Shown here in pieces: positions 1 through 17,279 of a stretch of DNA of 20,368 nucleotides. Position numbers and translations under genes: made by a program. Within the stretch, counting starts at the first letter, position 1, and the number at the start of each line of letters is the position of its first letter. Source of the stretch: a virus (taxonomy: Duplodnaviria; Heunggongvirae; Uroviricota; Caudoviricetes); the IMG/VR virus record IMGVR_UViG_2563366803_000006. One strand, 5' to 3'. Under the pieces are notes generated by a model that was not told the DNA's origin, did no database searches, and saw nothing but the letters and a program-made list of their open reading frames with translations.

Positions 1-930
1 CTATGATAACCGCGCATTCAACATGGCTATCTGTTCGTCGTTCATGTCATCAATCCACATACCGTAAATTTCATACACCATCTGCGCAGTTTCATGCCCC
101 ATTTGGCTGGCTATAAATGCCGGGTTCGCTCCTGCCGTCAACAGCCAGCAGGCAAAAGTATGCCGCGTATGGTACGGATTACGGCGGCGAATACCAGCAC
201 GTTTTACTGCTGCATTCCACCTTGCCCCCAAACTGCTTACCGAGTAATAAGGTTTTTGTTTTCCGTTACACACCCTGGGCATGAAAACAAAATGCAGTTT
301 TTGCTTTTCGGTTCTGCCGTACTCCCGATGATAAAAGGTGATTTCGCTTTTGCGATGATGCCCGGTCAGTTTGTATTGCTCCTTCAGTGCTTCAAGAGCA
401 GGCTGCAGTAGTGTTACTGTCCGGATCCCGGCATTTGTTTTTGGGGGACCGAACATATCAAGTATCGTCAGGTTTCTTCTGACATTCACTATTCCCTTTT
501 CGAGATCCACATCCTCCCACGCCAGAGCTGCCAGTTCCCCGTGACGAAGTCCTGAGTAAACTGCAAATTTCCACATGTTCTGGCTCTGTCCTTTTTCACT
601 TTCCATTAATGCATTGAATTCTGTTTTAGATAACGGATCAGGCTTTATTCTGTTTCGCTGTAATTTTTTTACTCCTTCAAATGGTTTGGTTGATATAAAT
701 CCCGACTGATACGCAAAACGTAACAGCGAACAGAGCAGGGCGATATAGTTATCAACTGTGCGCACGGTTCTTCCTTTTTTGTTGGATCTTGGATTATCCA
801 GGTAAAGCGTTTCTCCATGCAGCAGTTCATTCCGGTAGTTTAAGATATCGCTATAACGAATATGTGATATCAGGGTACTTTCACAAATTATTATTCTGAG
901 TGTTTTTAATTGTGATTTCGTTTTCTTCAT
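1..930 (-). CDS. Phage-type tyrosine recombinase (integrase); catalytic domain intact, 5' end probably truncated by IS1
   Basis: 309-codon minus-strand ORF ending with TAG at 3..1. Translation carries catalytic-domain signatures (LRHGE Arg box, HTRHT His-x-x-Arg box, VYEIYG Tyr region). Frame stays open upstream of the Met at 930 as far as the IS1 end at 965. Confidence 0.85.
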   Translation of the reverse strand: MKKTKSQLKTLRIIICESTLISHIRYSDILNYRNELLHGETLYLDNPRSNKKGRTVRTVDNYIALLCSLLRFAYQSGFISTKPFEGVKKLQRNRIKPDPLSKTEFNALMESEKGQSQNMWKFAVYSGLRHGELAALAWEDVDLEKGIVNVRRNLTILDMFGPPKTNAGIRTVTLLQPALEALKEQYKLTGHHRKSEITFYHREYGRTEKQKLHFVFMPRVCNGKQKPYYSVSSLGARWNAAVKRAGIRRRNPYHTRHTFACWLLTAGANPAFIASQMGHETAQMVYEIYGMWIDDMNDEQIAMLNARLS

Positions 931-1020
931 TGTGTTTGTTGTTAACTCTGTCTCTTTAATTTTTGGGTGATGCTGCCAACTTACTGATTTAGTGTATGAT
1001 GGTGTTTTTGAGGTGCTCCA

Positions 1021-1296
1021 GTGGCTTCTGTTTCTATCAGCTGTCCCTCCTGTTCAGCTACTGACGGGGTGGTGCGTAACGGCAAAAGCACCGCCGGACA
1101 TCAGCGCTATCTCTGCTCTCACTGCCGTAAAACATGGCAACTGCAGTTCACTTACACCGCTTCTCAACCCGGTACGCACCAGAAAATCATTGATATGGCC
1201 ATGAATGGCGTTGGATGCCGGGCAACTGCCCGCATTATGGGCGTTGGCCTCAACACGATTTTACGTCACTTAAAAAACTCAGGCCGCAGTCGGTAA
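1021..1296 (+). CDS. insA: IS1 InsA (transposition inhibitor / DNA-binding N-terminal part of transposase)
   Basis: 91-aa [25 protein letters not shown]... with zinc-finger-like CxxC..CxxC and HTH region, GTG start, typical of IS1 InsA. Confidence 0.95.
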
Positions 1297-1718
1297 CCTC
1301 GCGCATACAGCCGGGCAGTGACGTCATCGTCTGCGCGGAAATGGACGAACAGTGGGGCTATGTCGGGGCTAAATCGCGCCAGCGCTGGCTGTTTTACGCG
1401 TATGACAGGCTCCGGAAGACGGTTGTTGCGCACGTATTCGGTGAACGCACTATGGCGACGCTGGGGCGTCTTATGAGCCTGCTGTCACCCTTTGACGTGG
1501 TGATATGGATGACGGATGGCTGGCCGCTGTATGAATCCCGCCTGAAGGGAAAGCTGCACGTAATCAGCAAGCGATATACGCAGCGAATTGAGCGGCATAA
1601 CCTGAATCTGAGGCAGCACCTGGCACGGCTGGGACGGAAGTCGCTGTCGTTTTCAAAATCGGTGGAGCTGCATGACAAAGTCATCGGGCATTATCTGAAC
1701 ATAAAACACTATCAATAA
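1215..1718 (+). CDS. insB: IS1 InsB frame (expressed as InsAB' transposase by -1 frameshift)
   Basis: 167-codon ORF in the -1 frame relative to insA, overlapping the insA 3' end; A6C slippery motif at 1272-1278. Confidence 0.9.
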
Positions 1719-1780
1719 GTTGGAGTCATTACCGCAAAGCTGTATCGCGAGGCGAATCAAGCGCAATTAAACTTTAATAG

Positions 1781-1810
1781 AACCCGCCATCAAGCGGGTT
1801 TTGTTGTTAT
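1781..1810 (+). terminator. Candidate intrinsic terminator just right of IS1 copy 1
   Basis: Hairpin AACCCGC-CATCAA-GCGGGTT (1781-1800) followed by a T-rich tract TTGTTGTTATT. Confidence 0.4.
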
Positions 1811-1841
1811 TGTGGTGTGATATAAGAAACGACATTTAATA

Positions 1842-1975
1842 TTGCCTTCAAAATAAATTTGTTTATATATTGTCGCGTATATTATAAGTGAAGGTGAAAT
1901 GTTCACATAAAATAAAAATACATAAATAAATTTACATAGCTTGACGCAAAGTGTTGTTGCGATTGGAATATTAAA
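1842..1975 (+). promoter_or_regulatory. AT-rich promoter-like region upstream of the tRNA genes
   Basis: Candidate -35/-10 pairs: TTGCCT (1842-1847) with TATATA 16 nt downstream; TTGACG (1941-1946) with TGGAAT/TATTAA downstream. No single promoter can be fixed by eye. Confidence 0.3.
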
Positions 1976-2047
1976 TCGTATCATCGAAAACGGTTCTGAG
2001 GGGGAACTCTTCTTTGCTCGGTGATATCGCTCCCCTGAAGAACCAAT

Positions 2048-2123
<76 letters not shown>

Positions 2124-2126
2124 TAT

Positions 2127-2201
<75 letters not shown>

Positions 2202-2563
2202 GCATTTAAAACAAGCCTTATTGTATTACGGCACTGGCGTATTTTTTTATTACGTGGGAGCAGGTTGTTTTGAAAAAGCATTCTGTTCTCTGGCTATGAT
2301 TTGAGGCCGGGTGTAGCCTCAGTGCTAATTTTTTACGGCAGCAGAATGGTGCATTATCGGTGGAGATTTTGTATTTCCTGGCAGGGTCGGTGATGCATCA
2401 TTTTGGTGTTGTAAAAGCACCACAGAGGCGCTCCTCAGTGCGAGGGTGGTTTAAAGAGTCGGTTTAGCGGGAAACCACAGTATCCATGCAGCACGGAATA
2501 CTTCGGGAGGCACCCGACGCCTCGGTTTAATAACAATTAAAAAATTCATCCCTTGCATTGACC

Positions 2564-2589
2564 AACCGCCATATCTGGCGGTTTTTTTT
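2564..2589 (+). terminator. Strong rho-independent terminator (candidate tR'-like late terminator or tRNA operon terminator)
   Basis: Perfect hairpin CCGCCA-TATC-TGGCGG (2566-2581) followed immediately by eight T residues (2582-2589). Confidence 0.7.
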
Positions 2590-2977
2590 ATTCCTTTCTC
2601 AGGACAAAAAAAGACACGAGCATACAGGAATACTCGTGGGACAACGTCCTTTAGATAGCAATTTGCGAGAGGGTGAAAAGTAGCGCGGTCGTCGGATTAA
2701 GACCGCGGGACAAAGTCCATGAAGAATAATAAGTATTGGCCCCTTCTGGGGACATGTTCATACTACTAAGCTTCAGAAGTGGTTTAAATCATCAAATTAA
2801 CCTTAATTTTCGATAAGTCTTATTTCATTTCTTTGCGCCACACCTGGCGCGCATCAAATAACGCCACGCAAAGGGCATCTGCGGATGCCGGTGCTTTTGA
2901 CGGGGTGTTTTTTACGGGCCGCTGGTGGCCATTTTTTGTTTCCATTACACAGCGCCCGCATCTGCGAGGTGGGGGTT

Positions 2978-3193
2978 ATGAAATCCATGGATAAGTTAAC
3001 AACAGGTGTCGCCTATGGCACCTCCGCAGGCAGTGCTGGCTACTGGTTTTTACAGTTGCTCGATAGAGTCACGCCCTCACAGTGGGCAGCAATAGGTGTG
3101 CTGGGTAGTCTGGTGTTTGGCCTGTTGACGTATCTGACAAATCTTTATTTCAAGATTAAAGAAGATAAGCGTAAGGCTGCACGGGGAGAGTAA
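2978..3193 (+). CDS. Class II holin (pinholin, phage 21 S-like) with dual-start motif
   Basis: 71-aa product [26 protein letters not shown]... with two TM segments and charged C-terminus. Met1-Lys2-Ser3-Met4 dual start. Strong SD GAGGTGGGGG directly upstream of ATG 2978. Recalled similarity to phage 21 S. Confidence 0.85.
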
Positions 3194-3197
3194 TTCA

Positions 3198-3542
3198 ATG
3201 ACTCAAAACTATGAACTGATTGTGAAAGGGATCCGCAATTTTGAGAATAAAGTTACGGTAACTTTAGCGTTACGGGACAAAAAACGCTTTGACGGTGAAA
3301 TTTTAGACCTGGACATCTCGCTGGACCGTGTTGAAGGTGCCGCGCTGGAGTTTTATGAGGCAGCAGCCAGAAGGAGCATCAGACAGGTCTTCCTGGATGT
3401 TGCTGCCGGGTTATGTGAAGGGGATGAGCAGTCACCGGAAAAGCGCCCCATAATTTTAGAGGCGCAGGGTGTGTGGATAACCTACAAAGGAAAACTGCCG
3501 GGAAGAATTACTGGTTCACTGAAGACTCCGCCGAAATGGTAA
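3198..3542 (+). CDS. Hypothetical protein inserted between holin and endolysin
   Basis: 114-codon ORF starting 5 nt after the holin stop, with a G-rich SD-like tract upstream. Soluble-looking, no recognised motif. Position matches that of unknown-function genes found between S and R in some lambdoid prophages. Confidence 0.6.
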   Translation: MTQNYELIVKGIRNFENKVTVTLALRDKKRFDGEILDLDISLDRVEGAALEFYEAAARRSIRQVFLDVAAGLCEGDEQSPEKRPIILEAQGVWITYKGKLPGRITGSLKTPPKW

Positions 3543-3600
3543 TTTCACCAGCATATTTTTCTTCCAGTAATACCGCCAGCCACTTGAAAGAATTTTGTTG

Positions 3601-3780
3601 TTACTGGGACCATTTGGGGTTGAGTGATTCAAGCTGGAGCGATGCCAGTGTTGGTTGCATTTGTTCCTTGGGAATTGAGAATGCCAGATATGAAAATGCG
3701 ACAGTAAGGGCATTTACATCATCCCGAAGCTTGGAAATGCAGTCGAGCAACTCCTGTAGAGAAATGGTGCTATTGTCCAT
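3601..3780 (-). CDS. Small hypothetical protein (59 aa), convergent with the upstream unknown gene
   Basis: ATG at 3780-3778 preceded by GAGAGGA SD-like sequence at good spacing; product MDNSTISLQELLDCISKLRDDVNAL... looks helical. Not recognisable from sequence alone. Confidence 0.4.
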   Translation of the reverse strand: MDNSTISLQELLDCISKLRDDVNALTVAFSYLAFSIPKEQMQPTLASLQLESLNPKWSQ

Positions 3781-3885
3781 AAACAATCCTCTCTATTGTA
3801 TTTAACTATTCCTTGCCTGATTCAACAGGCCGGGACAGATAAACATATCCAGGGTTCAGAAACCGATAAATCCTGATAAATATCC

Positions 3886-4383
3886 ATGAACGCAAAAATC
3901 AGATACGGCCTGTCGGCTGCCGTTCTGGCACTGATTGCCGTCGGTGCGCCTGCGCCTGATATTCTCGACCAGTTTCTGGATGAAAAAGAAGGTAACCACA
4001 CAACGGCATACCGCGATGGTTCCGGTATATGGACCATCTGTCGTGGTGCCACAATGGTGGATGGTAAGCCCGTCATACCGGGAATGAGGCTGTCGAAGGA
4101 AAAATGCGACCAGGTTAACGCTATTGAACGTGATAAGGCGCTGGCATGGGTGGAGCGCAATATTAAAGTACCACTGACCGAACCACAGAAAGCGGGTATA
4201 GCGTCATTTTGTCCCTATAACATTGGCCCCGGTAAGTGTTTCCCGTCGACGTTTTATAAGCGGCTGAATGCCGGTGATCGTAAGGGTGCATGCGAGGCGA
4301 TTCGCTGGTGGATAAAAGATGGTGGGCGCGATTGCCGCATACGTTCAAATAACTGCTATGGACAGGTTATTCGTCGTGACTAG
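3886..4383 (+). CDS. SAR endolysin (T4-lysozyme-type muramidase with N-terminal signal-anchor-release domain)
   Basis: 165 aa. N-terminal weakly hydrophobic Ala/Gly-rich segment ([17 protein letters not shown]), then E-x8-D-x5-T catalytic spacing ([16 protein letters not shown]). Sits downstream of a pinholin. Confidence 0.85.
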
Positions 4384-4415
4384 GAAAGCGCATTAGCCTG
4401 TTGGGGGATAGATCA

Positions 4416-4880
4416 GTGAGCAGAGTCGCCGCGATTATTTATGCTCTGGTTATCTGCATCATCGTCTGCCTGTCATGGGCTGTTAATCATTACCGTGATA
4501 ACGCCACCGCCTACAAAGAGCAGCGCGACAAAAATGCCAGAGAACTGAAGCTGGCGAACGCGGCAATTACTGACATGCAGATGCGTCAGCGTGATGTTGC
4601 TGCGCTCGATGCAAAATACACGAAGGAGTTAGCTGATGCGAAAGCTGAAAATGATGCTCTGCGTGATGATGTTGCCGCTGGTCGTCGTCGGTTGCACATC
4701 AAAGCAGTCTGTCAGTCAGTGCGTGAAGCCACCACCGCCTCCGGCGTGGATAATGCAGCCTCCCCCCGACTGGCAGACACCGCTGAACGGGATTATTTCA
4801 CCCTCCGGGAACGACTGGTAATGATGCAGGCCCAACTTGAAGGTGCTCAGCAATACATAACCGAACAGTGTTTAAAGTAA
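4416..4880 (+). CDS. Rz: Rz i-spanin
   Basis: 154 aa from GTG 4416 (SD-like GGGGGA upstream): [30 protein letters not shown]... with N-terminal TM helix and coiled-coil periplasmic domain. Near-identical to lambda Rz as I recall it. Confidence 0.9.
4636..4821 (+). CDS. Rz1: Rz1 o-spanin lipoprotein, embedded in the +1 frame of Rz
   Basis: 61 aa [24 protein letters not shown]... with lipobox (VVGC) and proline-rich mature region; lies entirely within Rz. Confidence 0.85.
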
Positions 4881-5017
4881 AATCTTAACTACAATATGAT
4901 TCATTTTGATGATTGTTTCATAAGGAACAGTGAAGTAAGATCTAAGAGGAGTTAAATTTTATACAGTATAATCATAATATTGCAGCAAGGTGGTTATAAT
5001 TGAAAGAATATTTAGAT

Positions 5018-6475
5018 ATGAATACATCTCATGTAAGAGTTGTTACTCATATGTGTGGGTTCCTGGTTTGGCTCTATAGTCTTTCAATGTTGCCACCAAT
5101 GGTTGTAGCATTGTTTTATAAAGAAAAAAGCCTGTTCGTTTTCTTTATAACTTTCGTTATATTTTTTTGTATTGGTGGCGGAGCGTGGTATACAACTAAG
5201 AAATCTGGCATTCAATTACGTACCCGTGATGGGTTTATTATAATTGTAATGTTTTGGATTTTGTTTTCTGTTATTAGTGCATTCCCTTTATGGATTGACT
5301 CAGAACTTAATTTAACGTTCATTGATGCTCTGTTTGAAGGGGTTTCTGGAATAACAACAACAGGAGCAACTGTAATTGATGATGTTAGTTCATTACCTCG
5401 GGCATATTTGTACTATCGGTCACAGTTAAATTTTATAGGTGGTTTAGGAGTTATTGTTCTGGCGGTTGCTGTATTGCCATTATTGGGTATTGGTGGTGCA
5501 AAGCTTTATCAGTCAGAAATGCCGGGGCCATTTAAGGATGACAAACTCACTCCCCGCCTGGCCGATACGTCACGGACACTGTGGATAACTTATTCTTTAT
5601 TAGGTATTGCTTGTATTGTCTGTTATAGACTTGCAGGAATGCCTTTGTTTGATGCTATTTGTCACGGGATTTCCACAGTTTCGCTTGGTGGTTTCTCAAC
5701 TCATAGCGAGAGTATCGGATATTTTAATAACTATTTGGTTGAGCTGGTGGCTGGTTCTTTTTCCCTGCTATCGGCTTTCAACTTCACTCTTTGGTATATT
5801 GTTATTAGCAGGAAAACGATAAAACCTTTAATCAGAGATATTGAACTTCGTTTCTTTCTGTTAATAGCCTTAGGGGTGATCATTGTTACCTCTTTCCAGG
5901 TCTGGCATATAGGTATGTATGACTTGCATGGAAGTTTTATTCATTCGTTTTTTCTTGCCAGCTCCATGCTCACTGATAATGGTTTAGCTACGCAGGATTA
6001 TGCAAGCTGGCCCACGCACACGATAGTGTTTTTGCTGTTGTCAAGTTTCTTTGGGGGATGTATAGGTTCAACTTGTGGTGGAATTAAGTCACTTCGATTT
6101 CTTATACTTTTCAAACAAAGCAAACACGAGATAAATCAGCTTTCTCATCCCAGAGCGTTGTTGAGTGTAAATGTAGGAGGGAAGATAGTTACAGATCGTG
6201 TAATGAGGTCTGTATGGAGTTTCTTTTTTCTTTATACTCTCTTCACGGTGTTTTTTATACTGGTGTTAAATGGTATGGGATATGATTTTCTTACATCATT
6301 TGCAACAGTGGCTGCATGTATTAATAATATGGGATTAGGTTTTGGGGCTACTGCATCGTCATTCGGAGTGCTTAATGACATTGCAAAATATTTAATGTGC
6401 ATAGCTATGATTCTTGGTCGCCTTGAAATTTATCCTGTTATTATATTGTTTTCAGGTTTTTTTTGGCGCTCCTAA
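5018..6475 (+). CDS. trkG: TrkG/TrkH-family K+ uptake membrane protein (prophage-borne trkG)
   Basis: 485 aa from ATG 5018; multi-pass membrane protein with TrkH-type motifs (GITTTGATV, GIGGAKLYQSEMPGP, GSTCGGIK). Markedly AT-rich coding sequence. Alternative TTG start at 5000 has a better SD (AAGGTGG). Confidence 0.9.
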   Translation: MNTSHVRVVTHMCGFLVWLYSLSMLPPMVVALFYKEKSLFVFFITFVIFFCIGGGAWYTTKKSGIQLRTRDGFIIIVMFWILFSVISAFPLWIDSELNLTFIDALFEGVSGITTTGATVIDDVSSLPRAYLYYRSQLNFIGGLGVIVLAVAVLPLLGIGGAKLYQSEMPGPFKDDKLTPRLADTSRTLWITYSLLGIACIVCYRLAGMPLFDAICHGISTVSLGGFSTHSESIGYFNNYLVELVAGSFSLLSAFNFTLWYIVISRKTIKPLIRDIELRFFLLIALGVIIVTSFQVWHIGMYDLHGSFIHSFFLASSMLTDNGLATQDYASWPTHTIVFLLLSSFFGGCIGSTCGGIKSLRFLILFKQSKHEINQLSHPRALLSVNVGGKIVTDRVMRSVWSFFFLYTLFTVFFILVLNGMGYDFLTSFATVAACINNMGLGFGATASSFGVLNDIAKYLMCIAMILGRLEIYPVIILFSGFFWRS

Positions 6476-6561
6476 TATATGGCTGATTTATAATTGTGAG
6501 TTTAATATTATGTTGACTCACTCATTGATCCAATACTTAACTTTACCAGCAACACCTCCGC

Positions 6562-6597
6562 CCCCAGTAGCACTGGCTGCTGGGGTGCGTTTTATTC
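6562..6597 (+). terminator. Candidate terminator after trkG
   Basis: Inverted repeat CCCCAG (6562-6567) / CTGGGG (6580-6585) with a 12-nt loop, followed by GCGTTTTATT. Confidence 0.3.
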
Positions 6598-6612
6598 ATA
6601 AAGCAAGGATGT

Positions 6613-7404
6613 ATGAGCGAGAAATTAAAGATAGTCTATCGCCCATTACAAGAATTGTCACCGTATGCGCACAACGCCAGGACGCACAGCCCTGAGCAGG
6701 TGGCACAACTGGTAGAAAGTATTAAGCAATTCGGCTGGACTAATCCGGTGCTGATTGACGAAAAGGGCGAAATTATTGCGGGTCACGGTCGTGTTATGGC
6801 GGCTGAAATGCTCAAAATGGATTCTGTTCCGGTCATTGTTCTGTCTGGCCTGACGGATGAGCAGAAAAAGGCGTACCGCCTGGCAGATAATCGCCTGCCG
6901 ATGAATGCTGGCTGGGATGAAGATCTGTTGCGGATGGAGCTGTCGGACCTAATCAATGCTGATTTTGATGTCTCCCTGACAGGCTTCATCCCGACAGAAA
7001 TTGATGAACTGTTGACGGATGTTTTGCCCGGTACAGGAAATGAGGAGGAGCCGTATACGACGAAAATTGATACGCCTGTTTATGAGCCGTCGGGCGGTAA
7101 ACCGGATATCAGTGAACTGTACGACGATACGAAAACGCAGGAGCTGATCAGCCGGATACGTTCGGCTTCCCTTGAGCCTGATATTGAGAAATTCCTCCTG
7201 TGTGCGGCAGAACGTCACACGGTGTTTAATTTCAGCAGAATTGCGGACTATTACGCTCACGCCCCCGCTGAAATTCAGTGTTTTTTCGAGGAGTCGGCGC
7301 TGGTGATCATTGATTATCAGCAGGCTATTGAAAATGGATTTGTCCGGATGACGCAGCGCATGGTGGAGATCATGCATGGTGGTGAGGAGGAGGAATATGC
7401 GTGA
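6613..7404 (+). CDS. ParB-like nuclease (ParB/sulfiredoxin N-terminal) domain protein
   Basis: 263 aa. N-terminal region with ParB-box-like GHGR motif (GEIIAGHGRVMAAEM), acidic C-terminus. SD AAGGA upstream of ATG 6613. Confidence 0.75.
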   Translation: MSEKLKIVYRPLQELSPYAHNARTHSPEQVAQLVESIKQFGWTNPVLIDEKGEIIAGHGRVMAAEMLKMDSVPVIVLSGLTDEQKKAYRLADNRLPMNAGWDEDLLRMELSDLINADFDVSLTGFIPTEIDELLTDVLPGTGNEEEPYTTKIDTPVYEPSGGKPDISELYDDTKTQELISRIRSASLEPDIEKFLLCAAERHTVFNFSRIADYYAHAPAEIQCFFEESALVIIDYQQAIENGFVRMTQRMVEIMHGGEEEEYA

Positions 7405-8329
7405 TGATTTTTGCGCCTTTATTCTGACTCACGGGCGACCGGACAAAGTTCTGACTTACCGGACGTTGCGTCGTGCTGGCTATACCGGGAAAATTTTTAT
7501 CGTTGTTGATGATGAAGATAAGACACGGCATCAGTACATGGCTGAATTTGGTGAACAGGTGCTGGTGTTTTCCAAAACCGATATCGCCAGTCGTTTTGAC
7601 GAAGCCGATAATTTCTGTGACCGCCGCTCAATTTTTTACGCCCGTAATGCCTGTTTCGACCTGGCAAAACTGGTCGGGTGTAAATACTTCATTCAGCTCG
7701 ATGATGATTATCACGAGTTCCAGTTTCGGGTGGATCGCAACTATGACCAGGCCTATTTTCCGATAAGGAAACTGGATGCGATCCTTTCTGAAATGCTGGC
7801 GTACTACGAATCAATACCTGCTCTTTCCATCGCTATGTCGCAGGGCGGGGATTTTCTTGGTGACAATGGCGGCCATGCTTCGTGGGTGAAACGCAAGGCA
7901 ATGAACAGCTTTATCTGTTCGGTTGATCGACCGTTCTCATTCATGGGGCGCATTAACGAGGATGTGAATACGTACACGAATCTCGGTCGCTGTGGTGAAT
8001 TGTTTATGACGATCGGTGCTGTCCAGTTAGGGCAGAAACAGACGCAGAAAAACAGCGGCGGAATGACCGAGCTGTATCTGGATTCCGGAACCTACGTTAA
8101 AAGTTTTTACTCCGTCATGTATGCGCCGTCGTGCGTAAAAATTTCACTGATGGGTGCCAGCCATAAACGCATTCACCATCAGGTCACCTGGAACAACGCT
8201 GCAGTAAAAATCCTTCACGAAAAATACAGGAAGAAGACACCCTGCATATCAATGGGGGTGACAAATGATTCCGTATTCGAAAGTCGAGTCTCTGGCAGCG
8301 TGCCGGATGACTGCACAACAAATCGCTGA
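7397..8329 (+). CDS. Hypothetical protein with GT-A-like nucleotide-sugar transferase signature (DxD-type)
   Basis: ATG 7397 preceded by strong SD GAGGAGGAGGAA and overlapping the ParB-like stop (translational coupling). Alternating beta-strand/acidic pattern (FILTHGRPD, IFIVVDDEDK, YFIQLDDDYHEF). Function inferred only from this pattern. Confidence 0.6.
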   Translation: MRDDFCAFILTHGRPDKVLTYRTLRRAGYTGKIFIVVDDEDKTRHQYMAEFGEQVLVFSKTDIASRFDEADNFCDRRSIFYARNACFDLAKLVGCKYFIQLDDDYHEFQFRVDRNYDQAYFPIRKLDAILSEMLAYYESIPALSIAMSQGGDFLGDNGGHASWVKRKAMNSFICSVDRPFSFMGRINEDVNTYTNLGRCGELFMTIGAVQLGQKQTQKNSGGMTELYLDSGTYVKSFYSVMYAPSCVKISLMGASHKRIHHQVTWNNAAVKILHEKYRKKTPCISMGVTNDSVFESRVSGSVPDDCTTNR

Positions 8330-8516
8330 CGTTCTGGATGTTGATCTGAACCGACTGAAAGAAAATCGGGAAGCAATGACAGATTTTTATGCGGCCATCC
8401 GTAAGGGCAGAGCGAAAGGTGAAGCCGAGTTACGAGCGGCATTGTTTAAGCTTGCCAGAAAAGGGGATGCCTTTGCTCTGCGCGAACTACTCAGGGTGGA
8501 TAAAAATCAGGACTAA
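8307..8516 (+). CDS. Small putative DNA-binding (HTH-like) protein upstream of terS
   Basis: 69 aa MTAQQIADVLDVDLNRLKENRE... helical and basic; start overlaps the upstream gene; stop is 3 nt before the terS ATG and in the same frame. Confidence 0.5.
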   Translation: MTAQQIADVLDVDLNRLKENREAMTDFYAAIRKGRAKGEAELRAALFKLARKGDAFALRELLRVDKNQD

Positions 8517-8519
8517 CTG

Positions 8520-9614
8520 ATGAGCAGACCGGACTGGGGGGCGTTGCAGCAGGAGTATATTGCTGAATACACCCGCTCCGGTATATCTCCGGTGGCATGG
8601 TGTGAAGCAAGGGGACTGAATTACGCAACAGCCCGTCGTTACATCAAAAAAACTCCGAAAAATGCGCAGACAGAAATGCGCAAAACTGCGCAAAAAAGTG
8701 CGCAGAAAAAATCTGCGCAGACTGCACAAAAGCGGAACGAAAAATCTCAGGAAAAAAAGCCAGTATTCGATGCGGGCCTGAATGAGGGCGACGCGGAGGA
8801 ATTTTCGTTCTGTCCCGATGAATTCGGCATTTCTGACCAGCAGGCTAAGTTTGCGATGCTTGTTGCTCAGGGTAAAAAGCCGACAGAGGCGTACCGACTA
8901 GCCGGTTATGAGGGGCAAGGTGCGACAGCTAACAGCAACGCCAGTCGTATGCTTAGAAATGCCAGGGTTTATCGTGCTATCAGCTACTTCCGCAATCAGT
9001 ACCAGAAACGCTATACCGCAGACCTGGATTTACTGGTGAGCCAGTTGATGGTCATTGTCCAGGCCGACCCCAATCAGTTGGCACAATTTCGCCGTGTTAA
9101 CTGCCGTTATTGCTGGGGCGAGAATCATCTCTACCAGTGGCGTGATATTGCAGAATTCGATAAGGCTGCGGCACAGGCCTCCAGAGATGGTAAACCCGAG
9201 CCGGAATATGGAGGCCTCGGCTTTGTTGATAACGCCATACCCAATCCGGATTGCCCGAAGTGCTGCGGTGAGGGAACGGGACAGCTTTATATGGCTGATA
9301 CCACACTGCTTGATGGGGATGCGCGGCAATTATATGCAGGGTCAAAGCTCGGAAAATACGGTGTTGAGATCCTGCTGGAGGATAAGGCTGCCGCCCGGCG
9401 TGAATTGTTGCGTTTGCTTTCTGCTGGCGGGGCATTATGTGCAGATAAGCGGCTACAGGAACTGGAAATTGAACGGCGCAGAATAGAAAACCAGAAGCTG
9501 CACAAAGAGATCGAAACGGTGGAAGATAATGAACATCCCCAGCCTGTGGCGATCAATATTAATGTGGTTGATGCCAGAGTAAGGAGTGATGAAGATGATC
9601 TCTCCGACGCTTAA
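8520..9614 (+). CDS. Terminase small subunit (long form with N-terminal HTH, AQK low-complexity linker, Terminase_2-like core and C-terminal Cys cluster)
   Basis: 364 aa. Core motif AYRLAGYEGQGATANSNASRMLRNARVYRAI typical of small terminase subunits; lies immediately upstream of and overlaps terL; CRYC...CPKCC cysteines at 9102-9266. Confidence 0.7.
   Translation: MSRPDWGALQQEYIAEYTRSGISPVAWCEARGLNYATARRYIKKTPKNAQTEMRKTAQKSAQKKSAQTAQKRNEKSQEKKPVFDAGLNEGDAEEFSFCPDEFGISDQQAKFAMLVAQGKKPTEAYRLAGYEGQGATANSNASRMLRNARVYRAISYFRNQYQKRYTADLDLLVSQLMVIVQADPNQLAQFRRVNCRYCWGENHLYQWRDIAEFDKAAAQASRDGKPEPEYGGLGFVDNAIPNPDCPKCCGEGTGQLYMADTTLLDGDARQLYAGSKLGKYGVEILLEDKAAARRELLRLLSAGGALCADKRLQELEIERRRIENQKLHKEIETVEDNEHPQPVAININVVDARVRSDEDDLSDA
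8663..8728. repeat. Cluster of five TGCGCA hexamers (plus one TGCACA) inside terS
   Basis: Exact TGCGCA at 8663, 8677, 8687, 8699 and 8714, each followed by an A-rich tract; encodes the AQK-repeat linker of TerS. Confidence 0.8.
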
Positions 9615-10896
9615 TGTGCCTCAGGCGCGATTTCTTTCAATGCCCCATAAATTTAAAGCCTATATTGCTGGTTTTGGCTCGGGCAAAACATGGGTTGGGT
9701 GTGGCGGCATATGCAAGGGGATTTGGGAGCATCCAGGTATAAATCAGGGATATTTTGCGCCAACGTATCCCCAAATTCGCGATATTTTTTACCCTACAGT
9801 GGAAGAAGTTGCTGCTGACTGGGGATTGAACGTAAAAATTAATGAGGGAAATAAAGAGGTTCACTTTTATTACGGACGCCAGTATCGGGGAACCACTGTC
9901 TGCAGATCGATGGAGAAGCCACAAACGATCGTCGGTTTCAAAATTGGTAATGCGTTGGTGGATGAACTGGACATTTTGCCGAAGGAAAAAGCCAGAACGG
10001 CGTGGCGCAAGATAATTGCACGTATGCGTTATAAGATTGATGGACTTCGCAACGGTATTGACGTTACAACCACGCCGGAAGGATTCAAATTTGTCTACGA
10101 GCAGTTTGTTAAAGCCGTGCGTGAAAAAACAGAGCTGGCCTCACTGTATGGTCTGGTGCAGGCATCTACTTTCGATAATGAAAAGAACCTGCCAGCAGAT
10201 TACATTCCTTCGCTTCTTGAATCATACCCTCCAGAGCTGATTAAAGCCTATCTTCGAGGACAGTTTACTAACCTGACAAGTGGTACTGTTTACCATCAGT
10301 TTGACCGGAAACTGAATAATTGCGAAGAAGTGGAGCAGCCAGGGGAGCCGATTTATATTGGGATGGATTTTAACGTTGGAAAGATGGCGGGAATCGTCCA
10401 TGTGCTGCGTTTGGGGCTTCCATGTGCGGTAACTGAAATCATCAATGCCTACGATACGCCGGATATGATCCGCATCATTAAAGAACGCTTCTGGCTGTAT
10501 GATGGGAATGATTACCGGAAAGTGAGGGAAATTTATATTTATCCAGATGCTTCCGGGGACTCCAGAAAATCAAGTAACGCAAGTACGACGGATATAGCCC
10601 AGCTTAAGCAGGCTGGTTTTAACGTTGTGGTGAACAGCTCGAACCCGCCAGTAAAAGATCGCGTTAACTCAATGAATGCAATGTTCTGCAATGCCAATGG
10701 TGAGCGTCGCTATAAAGTTAATGTGAAGCGTTGCCCGTTATATGCCGAATCTCTGGAGCAACAGGTCTGGGATGAGAAGGGGGAGCCTGATAAAAAATCT
10801 GGCAATGATCACCCGAATGATGCCGGAGGTTATTTCATCGTTAAGCAATTCCCTATTGTCAAACCGACCGGAAGAGTCACATCACTTCGGATTTAA
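9595..10896 (+). CDS. Terminase large subunit
   Basis: Walker A-like YIAGFGSGKTW near the N-terminus; C-terminal nuclease-like region; SD AAGGAG (9581-9586) 8 nt before ATG 9595. In-frame alternatives at GTG 9586 and ATG 9589. Confidence 0.9.
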   Translation: MISPTLNVPQARFLSMPHKFKAYIAGFGSGKTWVGCGGICKGIWEHPGINQGYFAPTYPQIRDIFYPTVEEVAADWGLNVKINEGNKEVHFYYGRQYRGTTVCRSMEKPQTIVGFKIGNALVDELDILPKEKARTAWRKIIARMRYKIDGLRNGIDVTTTPEGFKFVYEQFVKAVREKTELASLYGLVQASTFDNEKNLPADYIPSLLESYPPELIKAYLRGQFTNLTSGTVYHQFDRKLNNCEEVEQPGEPIYIGMDFNVGKMAGIVHVLRLGLPCAVTEIINAYDTPDMIRIIKERFWLYDGNDYRKVREIYIYPDASGDSRKSSNASTTDIAQLKQAGFNVVVNSSNPPVKDRVNSMNAMFCNANGERRYKVNVKRCPLYAESLEQQVWDEKGEPDKKSGNDHPNDAGGYFIVKQFPIVKPTGRVTSLRI

Positions 10897-10898
10897 TT

Positions 10899-12305
10899 AT
10901 GGCTGATATATCAACACCCAACCTCGACTATAACGATATGCTGGAGGCGTGGGATATTAACGACGCACTGATGGGCGGTACGCTTGAAATGCGCAGGCAG
11001 GGGGAAAATTATCTCCCAAAATGGCCTAACGAAGATGAAGACGCTTATAAAAAACGCCTGTCTGTGGCTACGCTACTTCCTGTGTATGAAGAAAGCATCA
11101 AGCAAAATATTGGGCGCATATTTGCAGAGCCGACAGTATTGAGTGAGGAAACGCCGGCAAAAATCAGGGAATATGCAGAAAATATCGACATGGAGGGGAG
11201 CCGACTGGATGTGTGGGCGCAGCAATTTTTCAGCCTCGCATTTCAGTATGGTGTGGCACATGCGCTGGTGGACTATCCACGAACGGATATGAAAGAGATT
11301 CGGACAAAAGCCGATGAAAACGCGACCGGTGGTCGTCCGTACGTTACGATGCTGAATCCACGCCAGGTTATTGGATGGAAATCGAAAGTTGAAAAAGGGA
11401 AAGTTGTTCTCACTGATTTGCGTATAAAAGAGGTCATCATTATTGATGGTGATGATTTCGGGCAGAAGAAGGTGGAGCAGATCCGCCATATTATGCCCCG
11501 TCGAGTTGAAATTTATCGACGTAGCGAAGGCACTAATGGCGAATCTGTCTGGACGCTTCATGAGTCATGGAATACCAGCCGTGATGATATTCCTCTGGTA
11601 ACACTGTACACGAAGAAAACAGGATTTATGCGTGGTACACCGCCATTGCTTAATCTTGGCTTGCTGAATATCAAGCACTGGCAAAGCCAGAGCGAGCAGG
11701 ACAATATTCTTCATGTTGCCCGCGTTCCATTGCTGGTGGCCTACGGGCTGGACAGGAATGAAGAACTGACGGTTGGTGCATCCACCGCTACGATTTTTGA
11801 GGACAGAACAAAAAATGGCCTCGAATATGTTGAACATAGTGGCGCAGCGATAGAATCTGGCGAAACATCACTTGAGAAGCTGGAAAATCAGATGCGTCAT
11901 GCCGGCGCTAAACTTCTGCGTGCTGAAAATACATCCACCAAATCTGTTGATCAGACTAATGAAGAGCGAATGCAGGAAAACTCGCCGCTTTATACAATGG
12001 CGAACTCCCTCGAAGATGCCCTCGATAATATTCTCCAGATAATGGCGGAATGGATCGGAGAGAGTTGCGGTGGCAATGTGGATGTGCGCACTGAACTGGA
12101 TGTATCTGCCCAGGTGTTTGACTCATCCTCCGCGCTGGCTGTTCAGTCATTGCGTCAGGGCGGTGATATACGTCAGATTGATGCGGTTCGGGTGTTGCAG
12201 GCGTTGAAATTTATCGATCAGGATTCCCGTCCAGAGGAAGTGATCGATGAATTAAAAAATCAGAGTGTAATGCTGATGGAAATCAATGATGCAAACCGTG
12301 AATGA
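10899..12305 (+). CDS. Portal protein
   Basis: 468 aa, directly downstream of terL; size and position in the terS-terL-portal order typical of portal proteins. Confidence 0.8.
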   Translation: MADISTPNLDYNDMLEAWDINDALMGGTLEMRRQGENYLPKWPNEDEDAYKKRLSVATLLPVYEESIKQNIGRIFAEPTVLSEETPAKIREYAENIDMEGSRLDVWAQQFFSLAFQYGVAHALVDYPRTDMKEIRTKADENATGGRPYVTMLNPRQVIGWKSKVEKGKVVLTDLRIKEVIIIDGDDFGQKKVEQIRHIMPRRVEIYRRSEGTNGESVWTLHESWNTSRDDIPLVTLYTKKTGFMRGTPPLLNLGLLNIKHWQSQSEQDNILHVARVPLLVAYGLDRNEELTVGASTATIFEDRTKNGLEYVEHSGAAIESGETSLEKLENQMRHAGAKLLRAENTSTKSVDQTNEERMQENSPLYTMANSLEDALDNILQIMAEWIGESCGGNVDVRTELDVSAQVFDSSSALAVQSLRQGGDIRQIDAVRVLQALKFIDQDSRPEEVIDELKNQSVMLMEINDANRE

Positions 12306-13401
12306 ACGGCTGCGTGATGAATCAATTGCTCATGCAGTCTGGATATCCCGCTATAGCACTGGCGTGGCTGCCAGAATGGTGAAAATACTGAATGACAGCG
12401 ATGCGGAACTTACTGCTCGCCTGCTGATAGCACTGGACAGCCTCGATCCAGGTAGTTTTACCGTTAAGCGCCTGGAGTCACTTCTGGCGAGCGTCAGAGA
12501 GGTTAACCGCACTGCTATTAACAGCATGTTTACCAGTCTCTCCGGAGAGCTGAACGAGCTGGCAATTTATGAGGCTGGTTATCAGTTAAGTCTGTTTGAT
12601 TCTATGCTACCTGATTTTGTTGCTGATGTTCACCCTCTGGTTGGTATCTCTCCTGATGCACTTTATGCCGCTGCAATGGCGCGACCATTCCAGGGACGAC
12701 TGCTCAGTGAGTGGGCCTCAGATCTTGAGGCGGATCGGCTCAGACGCATAACAAATACAGTGCGTCAGGGTTTTTTGCTGGGGGATACCAATGAGCAGAT
12801 CGCAAGAAAAATTCGGGGACATGTCAGTAAGGGATTTCAGGATGGTGCATTGCAGATGAGCCGGGCTAATGCGGCCAGCATTGCAAAAACAGCGGTTGGA
12901 CATCTTGCTGCTACTGCCCGTGAGAGTTTTGCCAGCGCGAATAATGATTTGATTAAGGGTAAGCAATGGTTATCAACGCTTGATAATCGTACTACGCCAC
13001 AATGTCGAATCAGGGATCGCCTCAAATATACGCTGAATAATAAACCTGTAGGTCACAGCGTGCCTTATTTGCAGGGGCCGGGAAAAATTCATTTCTGCTG
13101 CCGCTCAACGGAAACGTTCATTCTGAAATCAGCGAAGGAACTGGGTATTGATGTTCGCGATATTTCCCCGGCTGAGCGGGCCAGCATGGATGGCGTGGTG
13201 GCCGGAGATACAACCTACAGGGAATGGTTTTTGCGTCAGCCTTACACCAGACAAAAACAGATTGTGGGGGAAACCCGAGCAAAGCTGATTCGGGATGGTG
13301 GTATGTCGCCAGATGAATTTTACACCGATAAAGGCGAATGGCTGACGCTGAAGCAGCTCCGTGAGCGTGATGCACAGGTATTCAGAAAAGCAGGGATTTA
13401 A
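12286..13401 (+). CDS. Head morphogenesis / minor head protein (SPP1 gp7 / Mu F-like position)
   Basis: 371 aa, overlaps the portal 3' end by 20 nt; called mainly from gene order (portal, then minor head protein, then scaffold, then capsid). Confidence 0.55.
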   Translation: MMQTVNERLRDESIAHAVWISRYSTGVAARMVKILNDSDAELTARLLIALDSLDPGSFTVKRLESLLASVREVNRTAINSMFTSLSGELNELAIYEAGYQLSLFDSMLPDFVADVHPLVGISPDALYAAAMARPFQGRLLSEWASDLEADRLRRITNTVRQGFLLGDTNEQIARKIRGHVSKGFQDGALQMSRANAASIAKTAVGHLAATARESFASANNDLIKGKQWLSTLDNRTTPQCRIRDRLKYTLNNKPVGHSVPYLQGPGKIHFCCRSTETFILKSAKELGIDVRDISPAERASMDGVVAGDTTYREWFLRQPYTRQKQIVGETRAKLIRDGGMSPDEFYTDKGEWLTLKQLRERDAQVFRKAGI

Positions 13402-13420
13402 ATAAATCATTTATTACAAC

Positions 13421-13447
13421 AGGCTACCTTCGGGTGGCCTTTTTTAT
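13421..13447 (+). terminator. Intrinsic terminator between head morphogenesis and scaffold genes
   Basis: Hairpin AGGCTACC-TTCG-GGTGGCCT (one G-U pair, TTCG tetraloop) followed by TTTTTTATT. Confidence 0.7.
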
Positions 13448-13505
13448 TGCTGCGATCCGGATGGTGAGCAGCGTAACTGTCGGAAGACTTAAACCAGGTA
13501 CTAAT

Positions 13506-14270
13506 ATGAAACTGAAAACGGTCGAGATTAACGGAAAACAATACGCAGAAATTGATACTGCTGGCCTGCCAGTTTATGTGCACGACGATGGTAAAGAAAT
13601 TGGCTTCGATGCACCGCTGGCGACAAAAAAAATTACAGAGCTTAATGGCGAGGCAAAAAATCATCGCCTGGCTAAAGAAGCTGCAGAGGAAAAACTGGCT
13701 AAGTTTGCCGCTATCGAAGACCCGAAGAAGGCGATCGAGGCACTGGAAATGCTGTCAAAAATCGACCAGAAAAAGCTGCTCGATGCGGGACAGGTTGACC
13801 AGGTTAAGGCAGAAATTACGAAAAATTTTCAGCAGCAATTAGATGAAGAAAAGCAACGCTCTCAGATGCTGGAGAAGCAGCTTTACGATTCTATGATTGG
13901 CGGTAGTTTTGCGGGTTCAAAATATATTGCCGATAAAATTGCGATCCCGGCAGATTTATTACAAGCCCGCTTCGGGCAGGCATTCAAAGTGGAAGAAGGG
14001 AGGATCGTTGCTTATGACGCTTCCGGCAACAAAATTTATTCCCGCGCGAAGCCTGGCGAACTGGCGCAGTTTGATGAGGCGCTGGAGTTCCTTGTCGAAA
14101 ATTACCCTCAGAAAGACTACATCCTGAAAGCCAGTGGCAACAATGGCGGCGGCTCCCGTCCGACACAGCATGATATTGGTCAGAAAACGATGAAACGCTC
14201 TGCTTTTGATGCACTGGATGTTGCAGGTAAGCAAAACGCATTGAAAGACGGTATCACAATCGTTGATTAA
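13506..14270 (+). CDS. Scaffolding protein (putative)
   Basis: About 254 aa from ATG 13506 (MKLKTVEINGK...), highly charged and helical; lies between the head morphogenesis and capsid genes. The ORF-track start at 13434 overlaps the terminator hairpin and is less likely. Confidence 0.55.
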   Translation: MKLKTVEINGKQYAEIDTAGLPVYVHDDGKEIGFDAPLATKKITELNGEAKNHRLAKEAAEEKLAKFAAIEDPKKAIEALEMLSKIDQKKLLDAGQVDQVKAEITKNFQQQLDEEKQRSQMLEKQLYDSMIGGSFAGSKYIADKIAIPADLLQARFGQAFKVEEGRIVAYDASGNKIYSRAKPGELAQFDEALEFLVENYPQKDYILKASGNNGGGSRPTQHDIGQKTMKRSAFDALDVAGKQNALKDGITIVD

Positions 14271-14368
14271 CACATTTGTCAGCTTCCGGATGGGAGCTGG
14301 TGTCAGGGCTGGATAGCTCATTACTCCATCTATTCACAATTACGCAAATTTTTAAGGAATATTTAATT

Positions 14369-15508
14369 ATGGCTGGAAATACCCTGACCGGGTTGATCCC
14401 GACTATTTATACCGCCCTGGATGTTGTATCCCGTGAGCAGGTAGGTTTTATCCCTGCGGTAGCAAAAAACGCAAAAGCTGACGCCGCAGCAAAAGATCAG
14501 ACGGTAACCGCGCCAGTTGCGCCTGAGGCGAAAACCGAAGATATCGTACCGGGGCCGTCAGCTCCGAATACCGGTGATCAAAATATTGGCACTGTTGATG
14601 TAAAAATTACTAAATCCAAAATGGCACCGGTTAAATGGAATGGTGAAGAACAACTGGCTCTTGGCCCTTCAGGGACTTACAACACCATTCTGGCTGATCA
14701 GTTCAAGCAGGCTTTTCGCGCCCTTGCAAACGAGGTTGAGGCTGATCTTGGTGCGTTGTATTTCGGTGCTTCCCGCGCCGTGGGAACCGCAGGGACAACG
14801 CCGTTTGGTGTTAAAGATGATCTTTCTGATGCTGCTCTGGCTCGTCAGGTTCTGGAGGATAACGGCGCACCGACAACCGATCTGCAGATGGTGCTTGGCT
14901 CCACTGCCATTGCTAATTTGCGCGGAAAACAGTCTGTATTGTTTAAAGTGAATGAATCCGGCACTGAACAGCTACTGCGTGAGGGCGTGTTGGGGCGTCT
15001 GGAGGGATTCAATATTCACAGTTCGGCAGGTGTGAAACGAGCGCCAAAGGTTGCTGCAACTGGTTATCTCGTGAATGGAGAGAAAAAAGAAGGCGATGTT
15101 CTTATTTCCATTGATACTGGTTCGGGGAGTATTTCTGCAGGTCAGATTGTTACGTTCGCTGGTGATCCGAATCAGTATGTTGTGGCAGCAGCGACCAGCA
15201 ATCTGATTACTCTTGCAGCGCCCGGACTGCGTCAGGATCTGGCCGATGATACTGCCATCACAGTTGTTGGGGCCTTTACTGCAAATATGGCGTTTGATCG
15301 CAACGCGTTTCTGCTGGCATCCCGTACTCCGGCAATGCCGGAAGGTGGCGATAATGCTGATGATGTAATGAATGTTACGGACCCGATTTCAGGGATTACG
15401 TTCCAGATTGCACTGTATCGTCAGTATCGCCAGGTGCGCTATGAAGTTGGACTGGCATGGGGTGTTTCATCAGTGAAGCCGGCACATGGTTGTCTGATTC
15501 TTGGTTAA
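14369..15508 (+). CDS. Major capsid protein (putative)
   Basis: About 379 aa from ATG 14369 (SD AAGGAA upstream), MAGNTLTGLIPTIYTALDVV...; position after scaffold and followed by a terminator; size typical of a major capsid protein. Confidence 0.7.
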   Translation: MAGNTLTGLIPTIYTALDVVSREQVGFIPAVAKNAKADAAAKDQTVTAPVAPEAKTEDIVPGPSAPNTGDQNIGTVDVKITKSKMAPVKWNGEEQLALGPSGTYNTILADQFKQAFRALANEVEADLGALYFGASRAVGTAGTTPFGVKDDLSDAALARQVLEDNGAPTTDLQMVLGSTAIANLRGKQSVLFKVNESGTEQLLREGVLGRLEGFNIHSSAGVKRAPKVAATGYLVNGEKKEGDVLISIDTGSGSISAGQIVTFAGDPNQYVVAAATSNLITLAAPGLRQDLADDTAITVVGAFTANMAFDRNAFLLASRTPAMPEGGDNADDVMNVTDPISGITFQIALYRQYRQVRYEVGLAWGVSSVKPAHGCLILG

Positions 15509-15518
15509 ACATTCAAAC

Positions 15519-15538
15519 GGGGCTTCGGCCCCATTTTT
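15519..15538 (+). terminator. Intrinsic terminator after the capsid gene
   Basis: Hairpin GGGGC-TTCG-GCCCC followed by ATTTTTAA, 11 nt after the capsid stop. Confidence 0.65.
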
Positions 15539-15550
15539 AATGGGGGGCAT

Positions 15551-15727
15551 ATGGCCGGATTAACTAAAGAGCAAAGAGCACAGCGTGAAGCCGCACAAAA
15601 AACGCAAATTGAGTTAGTGGTTATGGTGACCGATTATCAGATGTTTCCCGGCGCACCAACTATCGCTAATGTTCATCCTGATGAAGTTGACAACTGGAAG
15701 GCTATGGGCTGGAAAACTCAGGAGTAA
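15551..15727 (+). CDS. Small hypothetical protein (58 aa) between capsid and connector genes
   Basis: ATG 15551 preceded by a G-rich tract; stop TAA 15725-15727 lies 3 nt before the next gene's ATG. Product MAGLTKEQRAQREAAQKTQIELVVMVTDYQMFPGAPTIANVHPDEVDNWKAMGWKTQE. Below the length cutoff of the supplied ORF track. Confidence 0.4.
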   Translation: MAGLTKEQRAQREAAQKTQIELVVMVTDYQMFPGAPTIANVHPDEVDNWKAMGWKTQE

Positions 15728-15730
15728 CAC

Positions 15731-16126
15731 ATGATCACTTACGTGACCTGTGATGACGTTGATAATGCGTTTGGGAACGCCTGGACGAGTGAGAACGCTA
15801 AAAATAAAGCTGTTTTAATGGCTAATGCCTGGCTTAATGGCTTCAACCTGAAAATTAACCCATCCCGTATTCCGGAAGAGGTAAAACTTGCGGGAGCATA
15901 TGCAGCCAGAATTGCCTCATTCGGTAAGTTGTTTCAGCAGAAAAATGATTCTGGCGTTGTTATCAGTAAAGCCGTGTCGGCTGACGGGGTCAGTGTATCG
16001 AAATCATTTTCTGAGTTGCCAGCAAACAGCACTGCATTGCTTGAACCCGATTTACAGCTTGCGATAGCACTGCTGAAACCGTACGGACTTAGTCGCTCAC
16101 AAGTCAGGGTTGTGAGGGGGGGATAA
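15731..16126 (+). CDS. Head-tail connector/adaptor protein (gp6-like, putative)
   Basis: 131 aa, SD AGGAG upstream; first gene after the capsid in a run of four small tightly packed genes. Confidence 0.5.
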   Translation: MITYVTCDDVDNAFGNAWTSENAKNKAVLMANAWLNGFNLKINPSRIPEEVKLAGAYAARIASFGKLFQQKNDSGVVISKAVSADGVSVSKSFSELPANSTALLEPDLQLAIALLKPYGLSRSQVRVVRGG

Positions 16127-16509
16127 TGGGGCTTCGTGAAGAGATTCAGTCAGAGGTTGCCGCTGCTTTTGATGAGGATTTAGCGGACGCCGTGAGTGAT
16201 TTTTCTGGTTCTTACGTTACGCACCGGCACTGGGATCCTGTGACGGAAACTGGCGGCGAATCCACCGCAATCTATACCGGGCGAGGCGTGTTGACACGTT
16301 ATAAGCTGGGCAGAATTGATGGGATTAATATTTTGCATGGTGACCTTAAATTAACCGCTCTGGTATGCGAGGTTACGGATAAACCAGCTGTCGACCATAT
16401 TATTGAGATTTATGATCCTGTATCAAGGCAGTTACAACGATACGAGGTAATTACAGCAAGTGTAGATCCTTCCGCATCAGTTTACTCTATCCAGTTAAGG
16501 AGAGCGTAA
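16126..16509 (+). CDS. Head-tail joining / head closure protein (putative)
   Basis: 127 aa; start overlaps the previous stop (TAATGG); called from position. Confidence 0.45.
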   Translation: MGLREEIQSEVAAAFDEDLADAVSDFSGSYVTHRHWDPVTETGGESTAIYTGRGVLTRYKLGRIDGINILHGDLKLTALVCEVTDKPAVDHIIEIYDPVSRQLQRYEVITASVDPSASVYSIQLRRA

Positions 16510-16890
16510 ATGGCAAAGGCATGGGATATAGAACCGTCAATATTTGCCGGGATGATTGAGGAAGATGTAGGGCTGAAGATTCGCTACATCGCTATGCAGA
16601 TTCTTACTGCTATTGATATTGCTGCTCCGGTTGATACCGGACGTTTCAGAAATAACAACCTGGTGTCGTTACAGCATCCCGATTTTGGTATATCTGATAA
16701 CGTGGATCCGAACGGTACGATTGCTGTTCAGCGTGGGATCGGGGTTATTTCGAAAGCTGCAAATTACGGGGTTATTTATATCCAGAATAACCTTCCTTAT
16801 GCAGAGGCTCTTGAAAACGGTCATTCACAACAAGCGCCAACTGGCGTGTATGCCAACGCTTTTCATGGTGTTTTACAGGCTTACAAATGA
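16510..16890 (+). CDS. Neck/tail component, HK97 gp10-like (putative)
   Basis: 126 aa; position and size; gp10-like assignment is recalled family resemblance, not a search result. Confidence 0.5.
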   Translation: MAKAWDIEPSIFAGMIEEDVGLKIRYIAMQILTAIDIAAPVDTGRFRNNNLVSLQHPDFGISDNVDPNGTIAVQRGIGVISKAANYGVIYIQNNLPYAEALENGHSQQAPTGVYANAFHGVLQAYK

Positions 16891-17279
16891 AGTTTACTGA
16901 AATCAGAAATACGGTTATTTCCAGAATGACGGCACAGACGATTATTGATGGAAAAGACGTATTGTATCCGAACGGGCCAACGTTCGATCCTTCCGGTAAG
17001 TTAATCTGGGCGCGGTTAAGTAATATTCCCGGGCAGGCTGGAGTTAATGAAATTGGCGCGGGGCCGGTTGTTTATCGCACGGGGATAATCATTATTCAGT
17101 TATTTGTCCCCGCAGGTTCTGGTTCAAAACTCATTACTGAGACAGCCGATAAATTGCGGGAACTGTTTGAGTTTCAGGATGACGATCGTCTCAGTTACCA
17201 GGCTGTTTCCTCAATAGCCGTCGGCGAAAAGAATGGCTGGTTCCAGCTTAATCTTCAAATTCCATATCGCGCGCTCTAG
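16887..17279 (+). CDS. Tail completion / tail terminator protein (putative)
   Basis: 130 aa; ATGA start-stop overlap with the previous gene; immediately upstream of the major tail protein gene. Confidence 0.45.
   Translation: MKFTEIRNTVISRMTAQTIIDGKDVLYPNGPTFDPSGKLIWARLSNIPGQAGVNEIGAGPVVYRTGIIIIQLFVPAGSGSKLITETADKLRELFEFQDDDRLSYQAVSSIAVGEKNGWFQLNLQIPYRAL

Follow-up and report, generated by a model that had tools for sequence, protein, structure and literature searches.

An IS1-truncated integrase gene at the left end of a probably grounded Rac-like prophage in ttcA

The stretch of DNA analysed here, referred to below as the window, is the 20,368-nt IMG/VR virus record IMGVR_UViG_2563366803_000006 (Caudoviricetes), and it begins at the stop codon of an integrase gene (int). 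Positions 1..965, on the minus strand, carry a remnant of intR, the Rac-type tyrosine integrase gene, that retains two nucleotides of codon 91 and all of the gene from codon 92 to the stop codon after codon 411. Contained in this remnant is a residual open reading frame of 309 amino acids (1..930, minus strand; ATG at 928-930, stop at 1-3), the start of which is the internal Met103 of IntR, and which encodes the catalytic domain in full and the greater part of the core-binding domain. The 35 nt that separate Met103 from a neighbouring IS1 element (931..965, minus strand) are leftover intR coding sequence, running from the incomplete codon 91 to codon 102. The initial annotation had read the 309-codon frame as an integrase in possession of its catalytic domain, and a Pfam search is in agreement with this: the sole match is Phage_integrase (PF00589) at residues 103-289 (E = 1.5e-23), and the score of 83.9 bits, against a cut-off of 27.1, places the sequence in the tyrosine recombinase family. 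The catalytic R...K...HxxR...H...Y residues are readable in the frame (GLRHGEL, PPKT, HTRHT and GH...EIYG; GHETAQMVYEIY), and these motifs align with the corresponding motifs of the Tn1549 integrase (6emy).

The identity of positions 1..965 as intR, from a Rac or Rac-like prophage next to ttcA, was established by megablast against 5426 complete E. coli genomes. Compared with intR of E. coli VE-V10-F, this part of the window shows 99.4% DNA identity over 965 nt, and the identity to full-length intR spans the 35 nt ahead of Met103 before breaking exactly at 965/966; past this breakpoint the VE-V10-F reference continues with 271 more nucleotides of intR, whereas the window continues with IS1. At the protein level, 307 of the 309 residues are identical to residues 103-411 of K-12 IntR, the two substitutions being P122L and L221M. 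Full-length IntR has 411 residues in K-12 (b1345), VE-V10-F and JNEC-KY178 alike, with 102 residues preceding the equivalent of the methionine at position 930, and none of these homologues starts at that methionine. In the full-length protein, Pfam assigns residues 5-69 to Arm-DNA-bind_2 (E = 3.9e-26) and residues 82-139 to a SAM-like core-binding domain. The DNA coding for Arm-DNA-bind_2, which a complete IntR would require, is replaced in the window by IS1 from position 966 onwards, and, read from Met103, the remnant is also short of approximately 21 residues of the core-binding domain. The earlier suspicion of a 5'-truncated int, shorter than integrases that carry an N-terminal arm-binding domain, is thereby borne out. 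The accompanying estimate that 60-100 N-terminal residues are missing holds as regards the loss itself but not its extent, which amounts to 102 residues relative to the methionine and, in terms of DNA physically deleted from intR, to 90 codons plus 1 nt.

It had also been pointed out that no stop codon interrupts the 35 nt up to IS1. Positions 931..965 are indeed open in frame (KIKETELTTNT), and the int frame stays open for 30 codons further inside IS1, up to a TGA at 1054-1056. Since a run of 11 stop-free codons is expected by chance in about 59% of cases ((61/64)^11), the open frame is by itself no evidence of truncation; the decisive evidence for truncation is the homology to intR.

The element that abuts the remnant (966..1733, plus strand) is a 768-bp copy of IS1, with insA at 1021-1296, insB at 1215-1718 and an A6C frameshift motif. 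It starts with GGTGATGCTGCC at 966 and ends with GGAGTCATTACC at 1733; the imperfect terminal inverted repeats of about 23 bp (GGTGATGCTGCCAACTTACTGAT and ATCAATAAGTTGGAGTCATTACC) and the A6C site (TTAAAAAAC) mark it as a member of the IS1 family, and it is 99.4-99.7% identical to annotated IS1A elements. No 9-bp target-site duplication is present at this copy (flanks TAATTTTTG and GCAAAGCTG); this absence fits deletion or recombination subsequent to insertion and leaves the assignment to IS1 unaffected.

To the right of IS1, positions 1734..2047 (plus strand) are Rac-like DNA at the right-hand breakpoint of a deletion; in intact relatives this segment starts 38 bp past a DUF1133 gene and leads up to the prophage tRNAs. 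Of the intact relatives found, the closest is the Rac-like prophage at ttcA of E. coli JNEC-KY178 (L002), where 20000..37215 is collinear, at 98.8% identity, with 1733..18935 of the window. The two breakpoints lie 15,065 bp apart in JNEC-KY178 (L002 4936-20000), and no part of that interval has a match in the window. It opens with the 5' part of intR, xisR, a DUF1187 gene, ralR, recT and recE, continues with a hypothetical gene at the position of racC, a ydaE-family gene, kilR, sieB and ydaF, and closes with racR, ydaS, ydaT, ydaU, ydaV, several more genes and a DUF1367-DUF1364-DUF1133 block. Judging from its position, the DUF1133 gene appears to sit where lambdoid phages carry the late antiterminator Q. 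The initial annotation had remarked that the early region is missing, and xisR and the genes that accompany it are absent between IS1 and the late genes. An adjacent xisR, as expected for a complete IntR, does not occur in the window, in contrast to K-12, JNEC-KY178 and VE-V10-F, in all of which xisR directly follows intR (in VE-V10-F beyond an IS1). In the complete genome of the latter strain, this IS1 (L001 5277..6045), a further hit in the same short region, lies between xisR and an intact, untruncated intR of 411 codons.

These arrangements are most simply explained by an IS1-associated deletion that has fused the left inverted repeat of IS1 to codon 91 of intR. An IS1 already in place could have deleted the DNA next to it, or two directly oriented IS1 copies could have recombined; both routes stay under consideration because none of the 5426 complete E. 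coli genomes has IS1 at either junction. By either route, approximately 15 kb was removed, including the arm-binding domain of Int, xisR, genes for recombination, immunity and replication, and the DUF1133 gene.

Since the window begins at the int stop codon, attL lies outside it. The initial annotation had pointed to the left of the window for an attL core, and one is present there. In K-12, an exact direct repeat of 26 bp, TTGTTCAGGTTGTATTGTTCTTTCTT, marks the two ends of the annotated Rac prophage (L011 2400 and 25460). A draft assembly that is 100% identical to window positions 1..6930 (L004; GCA_000408585.1, scaffold KE137162.1, 4.77 Mb) carries an intact attL core, AAGAAAGAACAATACAACCTGAACAA, identical to the K-12 Rac repeat, at L004 7006-7031, inside ttcA (6982-7917); relative to window position 1 it lies 76-101 nt to the left. 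The remnant is thus found, by way of this assembly and outside the window, to be the neighbour of attL in the 5' part of ttcA. For the attR end, searches with the tail-fibre fragment, taken from two alternative starts, and with the YdaY-like protein returned relatives only; in a relative at the same chromosomal site (L022), the core occurs with two mismatches between sitA and uspF. The placement of the remnant corresponds to that of Rac, which is integrated in the 5' end of ttcA with intR adjoining the attachment site attL, and whose excision is driven by XisR (YdaQ), an excisionase encoded beside intR (Liu et al. 2015, PMC4632033).

What, then, could be left of integrase function? A C-terminal IntR fragment may be expressed by read-through across IS1, given that the 309 retained codons are intact, hold all the catalytic motifs and differ from K-12 by two substitutions. 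Any such product would at best bind and cleave the core site; it would lack a partner Xis and would not be expected to form the excisive complex, which depends on arm sites. From the combined loss of the domain, of xisR and of the native upstream int-xis region, we infer that the prophage is unable to excise by itself, that is, that it is grounded. If attR is intact, excision could in principle be brought about in trans by another Rac-type Int/Xis pair. Overall, we hold with high confidence that the left end of this Rac-like lambdoid prophage, in the 5' end of ttcA, consists of an intR truncated by IS1, and that the associated deletion has left a grounded, decaying prophage.

Decay is also apparent in the remainder of the window. 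Upstream of the lysis cassette lie a tRNA-Thr(UGU) at 2048-2123 and a tRNA-Gly(UCC) at 2127-2201, both on the plus strand. The two tRNAs are situated between the position of the DUF1133 gene and the holin gene, and are absent from K-12 Rac. At least 80% of window positions 1734-3300 is present in about 150 complete E. coli genomes, in which the tRNAs are conserved; they are annotated in the 25 matches listed. The lysozyme frame (3886..4383) carries a CAG to TAG change (C to T) at 4381-4383, giving 165 residues as opposed to 177 in JNEC-KY178 and in a 1.06-Mb contig (L005) that is closely related to the window; this nonsense codon likewise points to decay of the late region. Farther to the right, a second copy of IS1 (18936..19703, plus strand) has the same orientation as the first and differs from it by 2 nt. 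Here too a target duplication is absent (flanks TGCCCGACG and CTGTTGATT), and the element joins DNA 157 nt past a YdaY-like open reading frame to the last ~190 codons of a tail-fibre gene with a Peptidase_S74 domain. The tape-measure, minor-tail, J and lom genes of intact relatives are missing at this point, which indicates that the second copy marks another IS1-associated deletion, which starts with the tape-measure gene and takes in the greater part of the tail-fibre gene. The window ends at the exact stop codon of the tail-fibre gene, still inside the prophage. When 5000..18778 is set against K-12 Rac (L011), the window is seen to retain modules that K-12 Rac has lost, namely holin, lysozyme, terminase, portal, capsid and tail-tube genes, while K-12 Rac keeps what the window lacks: xisR, ralR, recET, kilR, sieB, racR and ydaS-V. 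The two remnants are nearly complementary, with trkG present in both.

The truncation reading must be weighed against the possibility that the 309-residue frame is a genuine, functional short tyrosine recombinase of the Xer/integron type, devoid of an arm-binding domain and starting at the methionine at 930. Many tyrosine recombinases of about 300 residues do function without an arm-binding domain, and the catalytic domain here is complete and undamaged. However, the 35 nt upstream of the methionine are intR coding sequence cut by IS1, the homologues at the ttcA locus are without exception either 411 residues long or annotated as pseudogenes, and a start at this methionine would fall 21 residues into the SAM-like core-binding domain. 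Nor does the DNA ahead of it show signs of initiation: there is no start codon in 931..965 and no obvious Shine-Dalgarno sequence before Met103, the 30-codon open stretch inside IS1 contains no ATG, GTG or TTG, and a promoter scan returned no minus-strand site upstream of the ATG, with a total count of sites that does not exceed that of shuffled sequence. A natural short integrase is hence hardly credible, and we reject it; the 309-residue frame is an annotation artefact of the first in-frame methionine. A different objection is that the junction itself is not real, in other words that IS1 simply inserted into a complete intR, that the early region lies beyond IS1, and that the join arose when two copies of IS1 were collapsed during assembly. 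At 768 bp, IS1 is a repeat that occurs at least twice in the window, the assembly in which attL was located is a draft-assembly scaffold, and short-read contigs do break at IS1. Against this, the right flank of IS1 is not intR but collinear prophage DNA 15 kb further on, and the 9-bp duplication expected of a simple insertion is absent. The exact 309-residue product is, moreover, recorded in 43 blocks of the assembly collection, and among the eight loci examined the same left junction is found in five independent assemblies or metagenomes (L004, L005 and L008-L010). In three of these (L008, L009 and L010), all assembled from short reads, the contig shows this left junction and stops within IS1; the other two, L004 and L005 (the latter 99.8% identical to the window through both junctions), are large independent sequences, contiguous through IS1 into the late genes, which read both junctions identically. 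A third close relative, a 1.96-Mb contig (L003), likewise lacks the early region. As the identical join recurs in independent assemblies, misassembly of the collapse type is very unlikely, and together with the collinear right flank and the missing duplication this leads us to discard simple insertion. Less probably, the early region may have been relocated in the source genome rather than lost. Megablast of the two junctions against the 5426 complete E. coli genomes found no contiguous match, and scanning the GTDB species-representative genomes for an exact 40-nt junction sequence gave none either; this precise join is common to several draft and metagenome assemblies.

Lesions of the same kind are found elsewhere. 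In RefSeq, PGAP annotates IS1-truncated intR pseudogenes at ttcA as "incomplete; missing N-terminus". In one of them, IQS20_RS06145 of E. coli EH10-18-47, IS1 lies directly at the break of a 5'-truncated intR, as in the window, but intR is kept to nt 848 rather than 965; in another, NMD61_RS13100 of E. coli ET979, IS1 is again at the break, though inverted, and intR is kept to nt 879. In both cases the DNA beyond IS1 differs from that of the window, being a flxA/relBE/hokD-type region. The corresponding loci, L025 5001..5848 and L026 5001..5879, come from two RefSeq complete genomes with IS1 at intR nt 848 and 879. In L003 (GCA_900450385.1), an inverted IS1 at 5214..5982 forms its junction at window position 948, 17 nt closer to the int ATG, and its other side joins at window position 2579, both tRNAs also having been lost. 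Over 6930 nt of flank, a single nucleotide separates this sequence from L004, which suggests a further IS1 event, either on top of the event seen in the window or parallel to it. Two further loci show damage of other kinds: in L006 (1..740), codon 33 of the same intR allele is changed from TGG to the stop codon TAG, xisR being intact, and in a metagenome scaffold (L007 1..250) foreign DNA is joined to intR at about codon 36, the 43 nt of this foreign DNA having no match in our search.

Such recurrence raises the question of whether the lesion has been selected instead of arising by neutral decay, with repeated IS1 hits immobilising a prophage whose cargo (trkG, the prophage-type N-terminus of TtcA, the tRNAs) benefits the host. 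Four distinct IS1-intR junctions (intR nt 848, 879, 948 and 965), in both IS1 orientations, together with the TGG to TAG allele at codon 33, can be cited in its favour. The G+C content of intR is nevertheless 34.5% at nt 800-1000 compared with 46% at nt 1-800, and all four junctions fall in this most A+T-rich part of the gene. IS1 prefers A+T-rich targets, and as the junctions fit this preference no selective explanation is needed: a mutational hot spot suffices. Decay that looks unselected is, in addition, present elsewhere in the window in the form of the lysozyme nonsense mutation and the second deletion. We therefore consider selection for the lesion unlikely. More elaborate proposals are more improbable still, whether that of recurrent selection that immobilises Rac-like prophages while keeping the intact catalytic fragment, which would serve for recombination without arm sites or would act in dominant-negative fashion on incoming Rac-type integrases, or, alternatively, that of an 18.7-kb composite transposon at 966..19703 carrying trkG and head genes.

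Truncation of intR by IS1 is, then, an ordinary, well-understood and already annotated kind of prophage decay, and its consequences are mainly practical. The open reading frame should be labelled an intR pseudogene (N-terminus missing, IS1-truncated) rather than an integrase, and the element is to be classed as the remnant of a Rac-like prophage, defective and non-excising, whose inner limits are two IS1-associated deletions. The clustering of these breakpoints between intR nt 848 and 965 in different IS1-truncated copies also offers a small, reusable marker for lineage typing, and illustrates the erosion of prophages by IS1.

Comparison with characterised integrases helps to place the remnant. 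With K-12 IntR (b1345) it shares the stop codon, the position 51 nt from ttcA, and the 26-bp attL core at that gene's 5' end; it differs in having no DNA for residues 1-90 and no adjacent xisR, and in that IS1 abuts codon 91. A functional parallel is provided by lambda Int, fragments of which that lack the N-terminal domain keep core-site cleavage and topoisomerase activity and are not known to carry out arm-dependent integrative or excisive recombination. The C-terminal fragments of lambda Int resemble the intR remnant in being a tyrosine recombinase without the arm-type DNA-binding domain, but they are engineered and derive from another integrase, and the intR remnant loses in addition the ~21 core-binding residues. 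As a PDB sequence search with IntR matched only Tn1549 Int (best, E = 2.5e-7) and XerA and did not reach lambda Int, this comparison draws on domain architecture. At the level of the whole element, "grounded" prophages have been described as fixed in the chromosome by mutation of the recombinase gene or of an att site, including by IS insertion or rearrangement (Ramisetty & Sudhakari 2019, PMC6379469). Between such prophages, among them the IS-disrupted lambdoid prophage of Shigella dysenteriae, and the Rac-like prophage in the window we see no difference in kind, and the latter is best regarded as one more instance.
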